From a virus (Duplodnaviria; Heunggongvirae; Uroviricota; Caudoviricetes), in the IMG/VR virus record IMGVR_UViG_2737471850_000003: DNA of 4,209 nucleotides; one strand, written 5' to 3'. Position numbers and translations under genes: made by a program. The notes beneath the pieces were generated by a model. That model was given only the letters and a program-made list of their open reading frames with translations. It was not told the origin of the DNA and did no database searches. How positions within the stretch are numbered: position 1 is the first letter of the stretch; each line of letters starts with the position of its first letter. Positions 1-4,209 of the stretch are shown here, in pieces.

Positions 1-363
1 TGATTCAGTAACGATGTTAAATTTGATCCCTACTGTTTCATAAAGAGATTTAAGCAATTCCTTCTGACTAGAACCTTTTTTTTGAATATCTAAAAAACCT
101 GCATATCTGAAGAGTTTCGCGTTCTTTTCACTTCTTGCAATGGCTTTTATTTTTCGTTGATATTGACTTTCGGATAGGTAACCTGCATTAAGTAGATAAA
201 GCGTTTCATCTAAGATAAATCGTCTATCCTCCACTGCAAATTGCTTAATCCATTTGCTGACATGTTCAGAGTTCATACCTTCAGCCGGAGGATATTTATA
301 ATCGCTCAACTTTTCAGCAATTTTATTGATTACTTTTTCACCAGATAAAATATTCGAGGACAT
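1..363 (-). CDS. Hypothetical protein, partial (start codon at 363, 3' end beyond the left window edge; at least 121 codons visible). AT-rich foreign gene of unknown function.
   Basis: Manual translation of the reverse complement gives an uninterrupted frame from ATG (complement of 361-363) to position 1: MSSNILSGEKVINKIAEKLSDYKYPPAEGMNSEHVSKWIKQFAVEDRRFILDETLYLLNAGYLSESQYQRKIKAIARSEKNAKLFRYAGFLDIQKKGSSQKELLKSLYETVGIKFNIVTES... An AGGA Shine-Dalgarno lies about 8 nt upstream of the ATG on the minus strand. Missing from the supplied ORF track because no stop codon falls inside the window. Lys-rich, AT-rich codon usage unlike the neighbouring phage genes. Confidence 0.5.
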   Translation of the reverse strand, partial: MSSNILSGEKVINKIAEKLSDYKYPPAEGMNSEHVSKWIKQFAVEDRRFILDETLYLLNAGYLSESQYQRKIKAIARSEKNAKLFRYAGFLDIQKKGSSQKELLKSLYETVGIKFNIVTES

Positions 364-393
364 AAAAATTCCTTTTCACAACACAGAATCTAA

Positions 394-421
394 AAAATAA
401 GAATACTTTTATTTATTTCAA
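394..421 (-). promoter_or_regulatory. Putative sigma70 promoter for the AT-rich minus-strand gene (-35 TTGAAA at 416-421, -10 TATTTT at 394-399, 16-nt spacer).
   Basis: Hexamers read on the minus strand; 5/6 match to TTGACA and 4/6 to TATAAT; located about 30-55 nt upstream of the ATG at 363. AT-rich context makes chance matches likely. Confidence 0.25.
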
Positions 422-479
422 GTATAGACCGTATATTCAACTACTTTTTTTTATAGTAGGGAGATACCGATCACAATTT

Positions 480-536
480 TTAGATATCTAATGTGATGGT
501 TTAATAACCAGCAGTCTTACGTGTTAATTCACGTAA
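480..536. repeat. Two palindromic elements in the divergent intergenic region: 12-bp perfect palindrome TTAGATATCTAA (480-491) and 7-bp inverted repeat TTACGTG-N6-CACGTAA (517-536).
   Basis: Direct reading of the sequence; both are perfect. Candidate operator or protein-binding sites. Not terminators: no T-run follows the hairpin on either strand. Confidence 0.3.
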
Positions 537-745
537 AAAAACTCATCAAACCTTCCTCTTTTCAGTTAATTCTTTTAAGAATAAACATCAGTAACTCGGG
601 CCGGGCTTAATGATACGGTTGGCGAATCACACTTGTTTCCCCATACGTCGAAACCGTGGGAGGATTTACGCGCAAAGAGCTCAATACGTGGAAGATTACC
701 CAGCAACCGAACCAGCATTTCACGCACGCAGTCTGGTTTACGTGA

Positions 746-1462
746 GTGCTCATGTCGCGGCGAGGTGTAGTGCTGGATGATCGAGGCGTCCTGCTGTGGT
801 GCCCGCTTACCGGGATCGACGTGAGAGCTGTCGAACAGGGGGATGATGCATGGCACAAATTACGGCTCGGCGTCATCACCGCTTCAGAAGTTCACAACGT
901 GATAGCAAAGCCCCGCTCAGGAAAGAAGTGGCCTGACATGAAAATGTCCTACTTCCACACCCTGCTGGCTGAGGTTTGCACCGGTGTGGCTCCGGAAGTT
1001 AATGCTAAGGCGCTGGCCTGGGGAAAACAGTACGAGAACGACGCCAGAACCCTGTTTGAATTCACTTCCGGCGTGAATGTTACTGAATCCCCGATCATCT
1101 ATCGCGACGAAAGTATGCGCACCGCCTGCTCTCCAGATGGTTTATGCAGTGACGGCAACGGCCTTGAACTGAAATGCCCGTTTACCTCCCGGGATTTCAT
1201 GAAATTCCGGCTCGGTGGTTTTGAGGCAATAAAATCGGCTTACATGGCCCAGGTGCAGTACAGCATGTGGGTGACGCGAAAAGATGCCTGGTACTTTGCC
1301 AACTATGACCCGCGCATGAAGCGTGAAGGCCTGCATTATGTCGTGATTGAGCGGGATGAAAAGTACATAGCGAGTTTTGACGAGATGGTGCCGGAGTTCA
1401 TCGAAAAAATGGACGAGGCACTGGCTGAAATTGGTTTTGTATTTGGGGAGCAATGGCGATGA
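746..1462 (+). CDS. exo: Lambda exonuclease (Red-alpha, Exo) homologue with a divergent or truncated N-terminus; possibly a pseudogene.
   Basis: From [48 protein letters not shown]... to the C-terminal ...[11 protein letters not shown] the translation matches phage lambda Exo as I recall it, nearly residue for residue. The first ~11 lambda codons are replaced by non-lambda sequence. The track start at 746 is a GTG directly after an in-frame TGA (743-745); the first ATG is at 752; no convincing Shine-Dalgarno precedes either. Confidence 0.85.
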
Positions 1463-1641
1463 CGCATCCTCACGATAATATCCGGGTAGGCGCGATCACT
1501 TTCGTCTACTCCATTACAAAGCGAGGCTGGGTATTTCCCGGCCTTTCTGTTATCAGAAATCCACTGAAAGCACAGCGGCTGGCTGAGAAGATAAATAATA
1601 AACGGGGGGCTGTATGCATAAAGCATCTCCCGTTGAGTTAA
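1453..1641 (+). CDS. Lambda exo-xis region small protein, orf60a-like.
   Basis: Position immediately downstream of exo and overlapping its stop, as in lambda. The second ATG at 1459 has a GGGGAG Shine-Dalgarno 8 nt upstream and gives exactly 60 aa, so 1459 is the likelier start. Identity is from gene order, size and recalled similarity, not a search. Confidence 0.6.
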
Positions 1642-1805
1642 GAACGAGTATCGAGATGGCACATAGCCTCGCTCAAATTGGAGTCAGGTTTGTGCCAATA
1701 CCAGTAGAAACAGACGAAGAATTTCATACGTTAGCCGCATCCCTTTCACAAAAGCTGGAAATGATGGTGGCGAAAGCAGAAGCAGATGAGAGAGACCAGG
1801 TATGA
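1614..1805 (+). CDS. Lambda exo-xis region small protein, orf63-like (63 aa).
   Basis: 63-aa ORF overlapping the end of the orf60a-like gene by 28 nt; G-rich Shine-Dalgarno (GGGGGG, 1604-1609) upstream of the ATG; size and position match lambda orf63. Confidence 0.6.
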   Translation: MHKASPVELRTSIEMAHSLAQIGVRFVPIPVETDEEFHTLAASLSQKLEMMVAKAEADERDQV

Positions 1806-1885
1806 CAACCACTGAATGCATTTTTCTGGCAGCGGGCTTCATATTCTGTGTGCTTATGCTTGCCGACATGGGACTTGTTCAATGA
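1802..1885 (+). CDS. Possible 27-aa hydrophobic micropeptide (MTTTECIFLAAGFIFCVLMLADMGLVQ), translationally coupled on both sides.
   Basis: ATG at 1802 overlaps the orf63 stop (ATGA, 1802-1805); its own stop TGA (1883-1885) overlaps the ATG at 1882 of the next ORF. Hydrophobic core suggests a single transmembrane helix. Not in the ORF track (too short). Could be a chance frame. Confidence 0.2.
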   Translation: MTTTECIFLAAGFIFCVLMLADMGLVQ

Positions 1886-2097
1886 CACCTCAGCAGGAAA
1901 ACGCCCTTCGCAGCATTGCCCGTCAGGCTAATTCTGAAATCAAAAAAGCCAGACAGCAGTTTCCGGATAAAAACGTCGATGACATTTGCCGTAGCGTACT
2001 GAAGAAGCACCGCGAAACGGTAACGCTGATGGGATTCACACCGACTCATTTAAGCCTGGCGATCGGCATGTTAAACGGCTTCTTTAAGGAGCGATGA
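1816..2097 (+). CDS. Exo-xis region protein, orf61-like (93 aa from ATG 1816; 71 aa from the alternative ATG at 1882).
   Basis: ORF in the expected position between the orf63-like and TraR-like genes. Neither candidate start has a strong Shine-Dalgarno; the 1882 start is favoured by its ATGA overlap with the upstream small ORF. Assignment to lambda orf61 is by position only. Confidence 0.45.
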   Translation: MHFSGSGLHILCAYACRHGTCSMTPQQENALRSIARQANSEIKKARQQFPDKNVDDICRSVLKKHRETVTLMGFTPTHLSLAIGMLNGFFKER

Positions 2098-2189
2098 ACA
2101 TGAAAAGCAAAATCATCAGGGAGCTACAGGCTCCTTTTTTATTATTCGCATTCACCCTCAAGCGTATTAACCAACAATTCAGGGATTAA
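2094..2189 (+). CDS. Possible 31-aa small ORF (MNMKSKIIRELQAPFLLFAFTLKRINQQFRD).
   Basis: ATG at 2094 overlaps the stop (2095-2097) of the preceding ORF in the ATGA arrangement; ends 7 nt before the TraR-like start. Not in the ORF track. Speculative. Confidence 0.15.
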   Translation: MNMKSKIIRELQAPFLLFAFTLKRINQQFRD

Positions 2190-2195
2190 TGGAAG

Positions 2196-2414
2196 ATGGC
2201 AGACATCATTGATTCAGCATCAGAAATCGAAGAATTACAGCGCAATACAGCAATAAAAATGCGTCGTCTGAACCACCAGGCTATATCTGCCACTCATTGT
2301 TGTAAGTGTGGCGATCCCATAGATGAACGAAGACGCCTGGCCGTTCAGGGTTGTCGGACTTGTGCAAGTTGCCAGGAGGAGATCGAACTTAAGAACAAAC
2401 AATGGGGATTGTGA
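2196..2414 (+). CDS. DksA/TraR-family C4-type zinc-finger protein (phage TraR-like; position corresponds to lambda orf73).
   Basis: 72-aa protein with a C-x2-C-x17-C-x2-C motif (Cys35, Cys38, Cys56, Cys59: CKCGDP ... CRTCASC) and an acidic N-terminal segment (DSASEIEELQ), as in F-plasmid TraR and phage TraR-like proteins. Confidence 0.75.
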   Translation: MADIIDSASEIEELQRNTAIKMRRLNHQAISATHCCKCGDPIDERRRLAVQGCRTCASCQEEIELKNKQWGL

Positions 2415-2461
2415 TGGCCTCAAAGCAGCAAATTTCAACATCGTCCAACTGAGGTGTAAAA

Positions 2462-2701
2462 ATGTTCAGAATCATTTTTCCTAACACCTGGTACGTCGAC
2501 CACCACGGCACTCCCTGCAAAATCCTGCGTTCTACCCACAACAAAGTTCACTACATCCGAAAAGGCAGAACATGTATCGCCAGCATGTTCCGCTTTAATC
2601 ATGACTTTGAACCTGTGAATAAAGCTGATGCAGATCGGATAGCAGAAGAGATCGAAACGGCAGAACACATTAAGAAGTTACGTGCCATACGCAGGAAATA
2701 G
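2462..2701 (+). CDS. Hypothetical 79-aa protein of unknown function, occupying the position of lambda ea22/ea8.5.
   Basis: Good Shine-Dalgarno (GAGGTG, 6 nt before the ATG at 2462). His/Cys-rich N-terminal half, basic C-terminus (KKLRAIRRK). I do not recognise a family. Confidence 0.5.
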   Translation: MFRIIFPNTWYVDHHGTPCKILRSTHNKVHYIRKGRTCIASMFRFNHDFEPVNKADADRIAEEIETAEHIKKLRAIRRK

Positions 2702-2830
2702 AAAAATTGATAAATTCAATACTGCATTTCTCAGCATTAAATTTATCTCTATGACCAGTCAAGAGATGTACCTGCCATGAGCTTAATATCATGTCAGATA
2801 TATCGGTCACAAACTCCCTCAGCAGCTAAG

Positions 2831-2836
2831 AGGAGG
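2831..2836 (+). promoter_or_regulatory. Shine-Dalgarno (AGGAGG) for xis.
   Basis: Canonical AGGAGG 4 nt upstream of the xis ATG at 2841, within the 139-bp AT-rich intergenic region 2702-2840. Confidence 0.5.
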
Positions 2837-2840
2837 ACAA

Positions 2841-3077
2841 ATGTCTCGACTAATCACTTTACAGGACTGGGCTAAAGAAGAATTTGGGGACTTAGCACCA
2901 AGTGAGCGAGTTCTGAAAAAATACGCGCAAGGGAAAATGATGGCCCCACCCGCTATAAAAGTTGGTCGCTACTGGATGATTGACCGAAATTCCCGTTTTG
3001 TAGGAACGCTGGCAGAACCGCAACTCCCAATAAACGCAAACCCAAAACTCCAACGGATAATCGCTGATGGCTGCTAG
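2841..3077 (+). CDS. xis: Excisionase (Xis-like recombination directionality factor).
   Basis: 78-aa protein immediately upstream of, and overlapping by 11 nt, the integrase gene; N-terminus (MSRLITLQDWA...) and the PP..K.GR segment parallel lambda Xis (MYLTLQEW...PPPVKDGRE). Not identical to lambda Xis. Confidence 0.8.
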   Translation: MSRLITLQDWAKEEFGDLAPSERVLKKYAQGKMMAPPAIKVGRYWMIDRNSRFVGTLAEPQLPINANPKLQRIIADGC

Positions 3078-4209
3078 ACCCCGATCTCACAAAATCTCTA
3101 TACCCAATTTATATTGCAAATTAGATAAGCGAACCGGAAAGGTATATTGGCAATACAAACATCCACTATCCGGTCGTTTTCATAGCTTAGGAACTGATGA
3201 GAATGAAGCAAAACAAGTTGCTACTGAAGCAAATACCATTATTGCTGAACAACGTACCAGACAAATATTAAGCGTCAATGAGCGTCTGGAAAGAATGAAA
3301 GGCAGGCGCTCAGACATTACGGTGACAGAATGGCTTGATAAATATATTTCTATCCAGGAGGACAGGCTGCAACATAATGAACTAAGACCCAACTCCTATC
3401 GGCAAAAAGGCAAACCCATTCGTCTTTTCCGTGAGCATTGTGGAATGCAACACCTCAAGGATATTACCGCACTTGATATTGCCGAAATAATTGATGCTGT
3501 AAAGGCTGAAGGTCATAACAGGATGGCGCAAGTCGTGAGAATGGTGTTGATCGACGTCTTCAAAGAAGCACAACACGCAGGACATGTTCCGCCAGGATTT
3601 AACCCAGCGCAGGCAACAAAACAACCGCGAAATCGAGTAAACCGCCAAAGATTGTCACTGCCCGAATGGCAGGCAATATTTGAAAGCGTAAGCAGACGGC
3701 AGCCCTATTTAAAATGCGGCATGCTACTTGCTCTTGTTACTGGACAACGTTTAGGCGATATCTGCAATTTGAAATTCTCTGATATATGGGACGACATGTT
3801 GCACATTACTCAGGAAAAAACCGGTTCAAAACTTGCTATTCCGCTTAACCTGAAATGCGATGCTCTGAATATTACCCTTCGTGAAGTTATATCTCAGTGC
3901 AGGGATGCTGTTGTTAGTAAATATCTGGTCCATTACCGTCACACTACCTCTCAAGCAAACAGAGGAGACCAGGTTTCTGCAAATACTCTGACAACGGCTT
4001 TTAAAAAGGCCAGGGAAAAATGTGGCATAAAATGGGAGCAAGGAACTGCGCCCACATTTCATGAGCAGCGATCTCTGTCAGAACGGTTATATCGGGAACA
4101 GGGTCTGGATACGCAAAAGTTGTTAGGCCATAAATCCAGAAAAATGACCGACCGATACAATGATGATCGTGGTAAAGACTGGGTTATCGTAGATATCAAA
4201 ACAGCATAG
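3067..4209 (+). CDS. int: Tyrosine site-specific recombinase, lambda Int family (prophage integrase).
   Basis: 380-aa ORF with lambda-Int-like N-terminal arm-binding region (RPRSHK..PNLY...RTGK) and conserved catalytic residues by alignment to lambda Int: Arg228 (TGQR, codon 3748-3750), Lys255 (KTGSKLAIP), His332/Arg335 (FHEQRSLSERLY), His355 (LLGHKS), Tyr364 (RYNDDRG, codon 4156-4158). Stop codon is the last three bases of the window. Confidence 0.95.
   Translation: MAARPRSHKISIPNLYCKLDKRTGKVYWQYKHPLSGRFHSLGTDENEAKQVATEANTIIAEQRTRQILSVNERLERMKGRRSDITVTEWLDKYISIQEDRLQHNELRPNSYRQKGKPIRLFREHCGMQHLKDITALDIAEIIDAVKAEGHNRMAQVVRMVLIDVFKEAQHAGHVPPGFNPAQATKQPRNRVNRQRLSLPEWQAIFESVSRRQPYLKCGMLLALVTGQRLGDICNLKFSDIWDDMLHITQEKTGSKLAIPLNLKCDALNITLREVISQCRDAVVSKYLVHYRHTTSQANRGDQVSANTLTTAFKKAREKCGIKWEQGTAPTFHEQRSLSERLYREQGLDTQKLLGHKSRKMTDRYNDDRGKDWVIVDIKTA

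Follow-up and report, generated by a model that had tools for sequence, protein, structure and literature searches.

An exo remnant very probably orphaned by a single 6,033-bp deletion in an icd-integrated lambdoid prophage of Escherichia coli

Exo of phage lambda (Red-alpha; PDB accession nos. 1AVQ, 3SM4 and 6M9K) is a close described relative of the exonuclease gene considered here. The two proteins share residues 10-226 at 98.6% identity, together with the YqaJ/PD-(D/E)XK domain. Lambda, in addition, possesses Exo residues 1-9, the start codon, the ribosome-binding site, the overlap with bet, pL, Bet and Gam, none of which accompany the gene at the present locus. A second relative, and the closest precedent, is exoD (b0539) of prophage DLP12 of E. 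coli K-12, likewise a 5'-truncated lambda-type exo located beside integration genes (xisD-intD). It abuts the opposite-strand genes peaD and renD (just right of P), and the block of immunity, replication and Red genes is missing there also, so that the topology of the central deletion is shared while the truncation of exo reaches deeper. The surviving last 87 codons of exoD are 98% identical to the exo described below. DLP12 differs in that only those 87 codons are left, in that the gene is annotated as a pseudogene, in its location at argU and in the additional loss of the spacer genes between exo and xis. The present exo, in contrast, has lost only nine codons, has kept its catalytic core whole, has had its frame fortuitously extended and is annotated as intact. 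The third is the icd prophage of E. coli 65COLEC and of ETEC TW11681, which carries a phage 21-type integrase module. It shares with the present locus flanks of approximately 100% identity, the icd site and the PRTase-CE/NADAR and exo-to-int gene sets; unlike that locus, it retains 6,033 bp that include a full-length exo.

The DNA analysed (hereafter, the window) is a stretch of 4,209 nucleotides from a Caudoviricetes record (IMG/VR IMGVR_UViG_2737471850_000003). Its features are as follows:

1-363, minus strand: codons 1-121 of a PRTase-CE gene (Pfam PF24390, 3.1e-8), forming the left flank, outside the deletion
364-574, no strand: AT-rich spacer of 211 bp upstream of the PRTase-CE gene (examined by promoter scan)
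575-811, minus strand: 3' remnant of an MT-A70 adenine methyltransferase gene, last 78 codons and stop (comparison with 65COLEC, Pfam)
743-808, plus strand: leader of foreign origin in the chimeric exo ORF, antisense to the MT-A70 remnant (sequence and ORF list)
808-811, no strand: deletion junction with the microhomology TACC (base-by-base comparison with 65COLEC)
752-1462, plus strand: chimeric exo ORF, 236 aa as publicly annotated (Pfam YqaJ, PDB); the true exo part is 809-1462
1459-2701, plus strand: DUF1317, DUF1382, a 27-aa hydrophobic ORF, a 71-aa ORF, a TraR/DksA zinc-finger gene and DUF4222
2841-3077, plus strand: excisionase gene xis (65COLEC annotation; gene calls in L002-L004)
3067-4209, plus strand: tyrosine integrase gene int (65COLEC annotation; gene calls in L002-L004)

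The small genes between exo and xis are all on the same strand as exo, and their assignment is based on gene calls and Pfam matches in loci L002-L007, which carry the same junction as the window (the carrier loci, described below), and on the RefSeq annotation of 65COLEC. The 27-codon ORF among them (1804-1887, plus strand; MTTTECIFLAAGFIFCVLMLADMGLVQ) is strongly hydrophobic, overlaps both the DUF1382 stop and the start of the next ORF, and is predicted as a gene in one of the public assemblies (L003). The window ends with the int stop codon. In the source genomes the next gene is icd, which lies 114 bp downstream in carriers L002-L004; in these carriers and in 65COLEC, xis-int adjoin this known bacterial attachment gene, as at the end of an integrated prophage. 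A scan of the whole window against Rfam identified no family.

The two parts of the window have different distributions among sequenced genomes. Searches covered 5,426 complete E. coli genomes and 50,697 phage records. Positions 805-4209 gave hundreds of matches in the complete genomes, and the right-hand matches in phages and E. coli all start at 805 or 808. No match among the complete genomes extended left of 805, and neither did any of the 261 window-matching records of the phage collection. When bases 1-830 were searched alone, 19 complete genomes matched positions 1-811 at 99.2-99.9% identity (18 of the 19 over the full 1-811), and in all of them the matching DNA lies under a phosphoribosyltransferase-like (anti-phage) gene and a gene annotated as 'MT-A70 family methyltransferase'. 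Both flanks were located in a single icd-integrated prophage of 65COLEC, in the same orientation and 6 kb apart. There, window 1-811 corresponds to positions 2674274-2675084 (one mismatch) and window 805-4209 to positions 2681111-2684515 (one mismatch, at junction base 807). Coordinates in the complete genomes 504239, 67-1, TW11681 and S1-NGR-02-A give the same flank spacing of 6.03 kb. The stretch absent from the window comprises 6,033 bp (positions 11086-17118 of the 65COLEC locus, L001), and in the carrier loci PRTase-CE is followed directly by exo. What sets the window apart from a nearly identical prophage is the loss of the genes for repressor, replication and recombination, which is the pattern of a central deletion.

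Base-by-base comparison of the join showed that the left parent is followed through GCTTACC (805-811) and the right parent, which reads GCGTACC, from TACC (808). The site common to both parents is the 4-bp TACC, with six of seven bases agreeing overall (GCnTACC). Microhomology of at least 4 bp has a chance of about 0.016 at a random join, and a repeat search around the junction gave only short repeats at chance level. Bases 743-811 are very probably the scar of a single 6,033-bp deletion in an icd lambdoid prophage of one E. coli clonal lineage, which left the exo remnant orphaned. Illegitimate recombination or slippage would have joined two sites sharing TACC, one within the MT-A70 gene, which belongs to the rightward operon and is on the opposite strand, and the other at codon 9/10 of exo, a gene of the leftward operon. 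Two other origins were considered and rejected: an insertion of the 6 kb in the other genomes, since this stretch completes both interrupted genes and carries the essential early region of the phage, and an aberrant excision mediated by Int or att sites, since neither end point is near an attachment site. That the window represents a natural mosaic variant of a functional lambdoid phage, with a different exo N-terminus and its annealase encoded elsewhere, is extremely improbable. Lambdoid phages are highly mosaic and breaks in homology are common at gene boundaries, but the break here falls inside exo and not at a module boundary, the sequence upstream of it is the antisense of a truncated methylase gene, the repressor, O and P are missing from the locus, and none of the matching phage records reaches left of 805.

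The deletion is not confined to one record. At least 14 contigs, from E. coli isolates that are almost identical, encode the 236-aa product; seven loci were retrieved, three from NCBI draft assemblies and four from independently assembled Logan read sets. The junction sequence is identical in all seven, and icd was found just downstream of int in all six loci long enough to span them; one carrier contig of 411 kb has 9 kb of prophage on its left and chromosome on its right. Between the carrier loci there are 0-2 SNPs across as much as 11.4 kb, and the window itself is free of substitutions. Because of these few SNPs, the carriers are recognised as separate isolates and not as one data set; they belong to one clone, in which the deletion is inherited and recent. 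Among the 5,426 complete genomes of E. coli and the 50,697 phage records, none contains the junction or has the N-terminus and upstream context of this exo, a comparison suggested by the first-pass annotation that leaves its reading standing, and a 30-nt sequence across the junction had no exact match in a species-representative genome collection in which E. coli is represented by one genome. This absence from complete genomes would also be expected of an assembly or scaffolding artefact that joined two parts of a normal prophage, and the contig ends of two draft assemblies (L003 and L004) are indeed nearby, in an AT-rich region. An artefact is nonetheless exceedingly unlikely to account for an identical junction on this number of contigs, the 411-kb one among them, which come from separate NCBI assemblies as well as from read sets assembled independently, in isolates that differ by a few SNPs.

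According to the RefSeq annotation of 65COLEC, the genes missing from the window are, in order, the 5' part of MT-A70, replication protein P, an O-type replication protein, a YdaT-domain protein, a small HTH (cro-like) protein, a divergent XRE/cI-type repressor, a hypothetical ORF with a lipoprotein-like signal, a Kil-type division inhibitor, Gam, Bet and exo codons 1-9. In this undeleted prophage kil-gam-bet-exo is intact, the end of bet overlaps exo (ATGA) and AAGGTGG precedes exo. In the window, antisense MT-A70 sequence is found in the place of an upstream, overlapping bet, while gam, kil and the early leftward promoter/repressor region all fall within the missing interval. The first-pass annotation had read the locus as a defective prophage with a disrupted Red module and with no bet before exo. 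This reading is borne out by the 6,033 bp missing in comparison with the kil-gam-bet-exo prophage, the DNA upstream of exo being the 3' end of MT-A70 and the start of PRTase-CE, both on the other strand. The deletion took out the repressor and the replication functions together with the two divergent early promoter regions, and left nothing of the Red module but a headless exo. The remaining exo thereby lost its start codon, the AAGGTGG ribosome site, the ATGA overlap with bet, its promoter and its annealase partner, and the prophage would no longer be repressible, inducible or replicable.

The left side of the junction accounts for the unusual beginning of the exo ORF. Bases 575-811 are 99.9% identical to positions 10849-11085 of the 65COLEC locus and match only positions 126-171 of the 172 of the Pfam MT-A70 profile; the deletion took the 5' 60% of the gene and with it the DPPW motif (codons 10-13 when the gene is complete), and a full MT-A70 domain is therefore not present. 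The 'non-lambda N-terminus' remarked upon for exo is antisense sequence of this methylase, by chance stop-free for 21 codons. The start of lambda-like sequence, previously placed at around 795-808, was located at 808/809, corresponding to Exo residue 10. The estimate of about 11 differing codons did not hold: nine native codons are missing and are replaced by 21 (counted from GTG746) or 19 (counted from ATG752).

Two further observations concern the methylase sequence. The MT-A70 gene of the undeleted 65COLEC prophage (L001 10849-11433, minus strand) is interrupted by an in-frame TGA as its ninth codon, directly ahead of DPPW (MNKKYTLI*ADPPW), and because of this stop the methylase may already have been inactive when the deletion occurred. 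On the minus strand a reciprocal chimera also spans the junction (575-856), a 93-aa ORF beginning with a GTG at 856 and consisting of 15 antisense-exo codons followed by the last 78 codons of MT-A70.

The exo frame follows a TGA (743-745), begins with a GTG (746-748) and is then open until the TGA at 1460-1462. Possible starts in this frame are GTG746, ATG752 and GTG770, all of which are in the foreign leader. The first-pass annotation was correct in identifying GTG746, directly after a TGA, as the first in-frame start, but it overlooked the in-frame ATG752, which is the publicly annotated one. In the ATG752 product the native residues MTPDIILQR are gone, with 19 foreign residues in their place (21 codons if counted from GTG746), and residues 20-236 correspond to residues 10-226 of lambda Exo. 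Alignment to PDB accession nos. 6M9K and 1AVQ (E about 1e-149) showed 215 of 218 aligned residues to be identical, the only differences in positions 10-226 being N to D, M to I and I to M at lambda positions 178, 196 and 201. The PDB match to lambda exonuclease (2.7e-149) covers chain residues 9-226. The Pfam match to YqaJ (PF09588, 7e-30) covers residues 34-177, the domain beginning only at lambda residue 24; this domain and the close identity to lambda Exo place the product in the lambda Exo/YqaJ family. The coding sequence is not the complete native one, codons 1-9 and the AAGGTGG site having been deleted, and the ATGA overlap of the exo end with the next gene downstream has been kept.

The residues of the PD-(D/E)XK triad, Asp109, Glu129 and Lys131 in lambda Exo, lie in segments identical to lambda, as do those of the 5'-phosphate pocket, so that catalytic and pocket residues are all retained (Arg28, Arg45, Leu78, Asp109, Glu129 and Lys131). 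Arg28, Arg45 and Leu78 have been named as essential residues of lambda Exo (PMC11611040). The catalytic core (residues 10-226) is intact. A single-sequence AlphaFold2 model of the chimera had a mean pLDDT of 33.6, too low for it to bear on the new N-terminus. The exact 236-aa ATG752 protein is found in NCBI as 'lambda exonuclease family protein', with its truncation unflagged, whereas a public look-up of the 238-aa GTG746 product returned no record. As the frame is open by chance for 21 codons of antisense methylase, gene callers report an apparently intact protein of 236 aa.

Signals for expression of this ORF are sparse. For approximately 4 kb upstream of exo all genes are on the other strand, and the spacer at 364-574 is the only possible place for a plus-strand exo promoter. 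A promoter scan of positions 300-1000 found one weak match on the plus strand (375-404, 9/12) and one match on the minus strand, that is, two against 1.5 expected in shuffled sequence, and a terminator scan of the same region found none. Duplex energies with the 16S tail are -2.2 kcal/mol for GTG746 and -2.3 kcal/mol for ATG752, no better than about half of the positions in the window, in agreement with the earlier remark that a good Shine-Dalgarno sequence is absent. That remark does not apply to GTG770, which has GAGGT (762-766) 4 nt upstream at -7.1 kcal/mol, within the top 7% of window positions; the native exo site of the undeleted prophage has -7.3 kcal/mol. The deletion of the native start and ribosome site, evident from the comparison with the undeleted prophage, also upholds the proposal that exo is a pseudogene or is read only from a fortuitous start. 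The gene is most likely a recently orphaned remnant that would be silent or expressed at trace level.

Were it made, the chimeric Exo could be active, judging from the conserved residues. It is quite unlikely, however, that it is translated from GTG770 or ATG752 on a transcript arising fortuitously or by read-through, and that it has been retained because the host profits from a stand-alone 5'-3' exonuclease, for instance one working with the annealase of another prophage. An open ORF without later mutations and with its core intact (residues 10-226, at the identity given above), the GAGGT upstream of GTG770 and the preserved ATGA overlap with the downstream gene are each compatible with such a role. 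Loss of the native N-terminus may be tolerable as well: lambda Exo tolerates N-terminal tags, a His-tagged form still binding Red-beta (PMC6393309), the conserved YqaJ domain starts only at lambda residue 24, and the Laribacter homologue (PDB accession no. 3SYY) aligns with lambda Exo only from lambda residue 18. Against this, the promoter signal is not above chance and no co-oriented gene lies upstream for approximately 4 kb, bet and gam are missing, and the carriers form a single clone in which the window shows no substitution, so that the ORF is unmutated because the deletion is young and not through selection. Very unlikely, too, is the further suggestion that the chimera, with 13-19 antisense-methylase residues joined to Exo 10-226, is a domesticated solo exonuclease, and that the deletion was favoured for disarming the prophage while sparing the nuclease and the PRTase-CE/NADAR defence candidates. 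A recently orphaned exo remnant is the reading retained here.

The PRTase-CE gene truncated by the left end of the window is complete in carrier L002, where it was identified by PADLOC as PRTase_III-A (1.5e-10). The region that continues window 1-363 in this carrier (L002 7980-9612, minus strand) contains PRTase-CE and then a NADAR gene (PADLOC candidate PDC-M42C, 1.4e-8), and on the basis of these matches the two are a candidate anti-phage pair. The pair is inserted between MT-A70 and ybcN/ninE, is preceded by an AT-rich region of its own and survives the deletion. Within that region, between the MT-A70 stop and the PRTase-CE start, is a perfect 7-bp palindrome (517-541, TTACGTG-TTAATT-CACGTAA) followed by a run of A. 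It was not terminator-like on either strand when scanned, and could be a protein-binding site.

The nin region of 65COLEC is 97.1% identical to that of carrier L002, and 65COLEC is a near-identical relative, not a proven parent. The 65COLEC prophage has defects of its own in other parts, its terminase and tail genes being partial (L001 1-4500). The lysis/Q region differs as well, that of the carriers containing porin, Bor and DUF1398 genes (L002 1-6300); the prophage family is mosaic. In ETEC 67-1, TW11681, 504239 and S1-NGR-02-A an IS3-family insertion interrupts this integrase gene, which is a different route to immobilising the same prophage.

The locus is a standard defective lambdoid prophage and a case of ordinary prophage decay: this instance is new, and the kind of event is well known. 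Its scientific weight is small, as one further example of such decay. For users of public databases, annotation as an ordinary 236-aa 'lambda exonuclease family protein' hides a truncated fusion without promoter or partner, and the junction provides a clean clonal marker for one E. coli lineage. For the biology of these prophages, one deletion at a microhomology suffices to take away the repressor and kil, the genes for replication and Red recombination and the two early promoters at once, and this joint loss would disarm the prophage safely, because loss of the repressor alone would be lethal to the cell.
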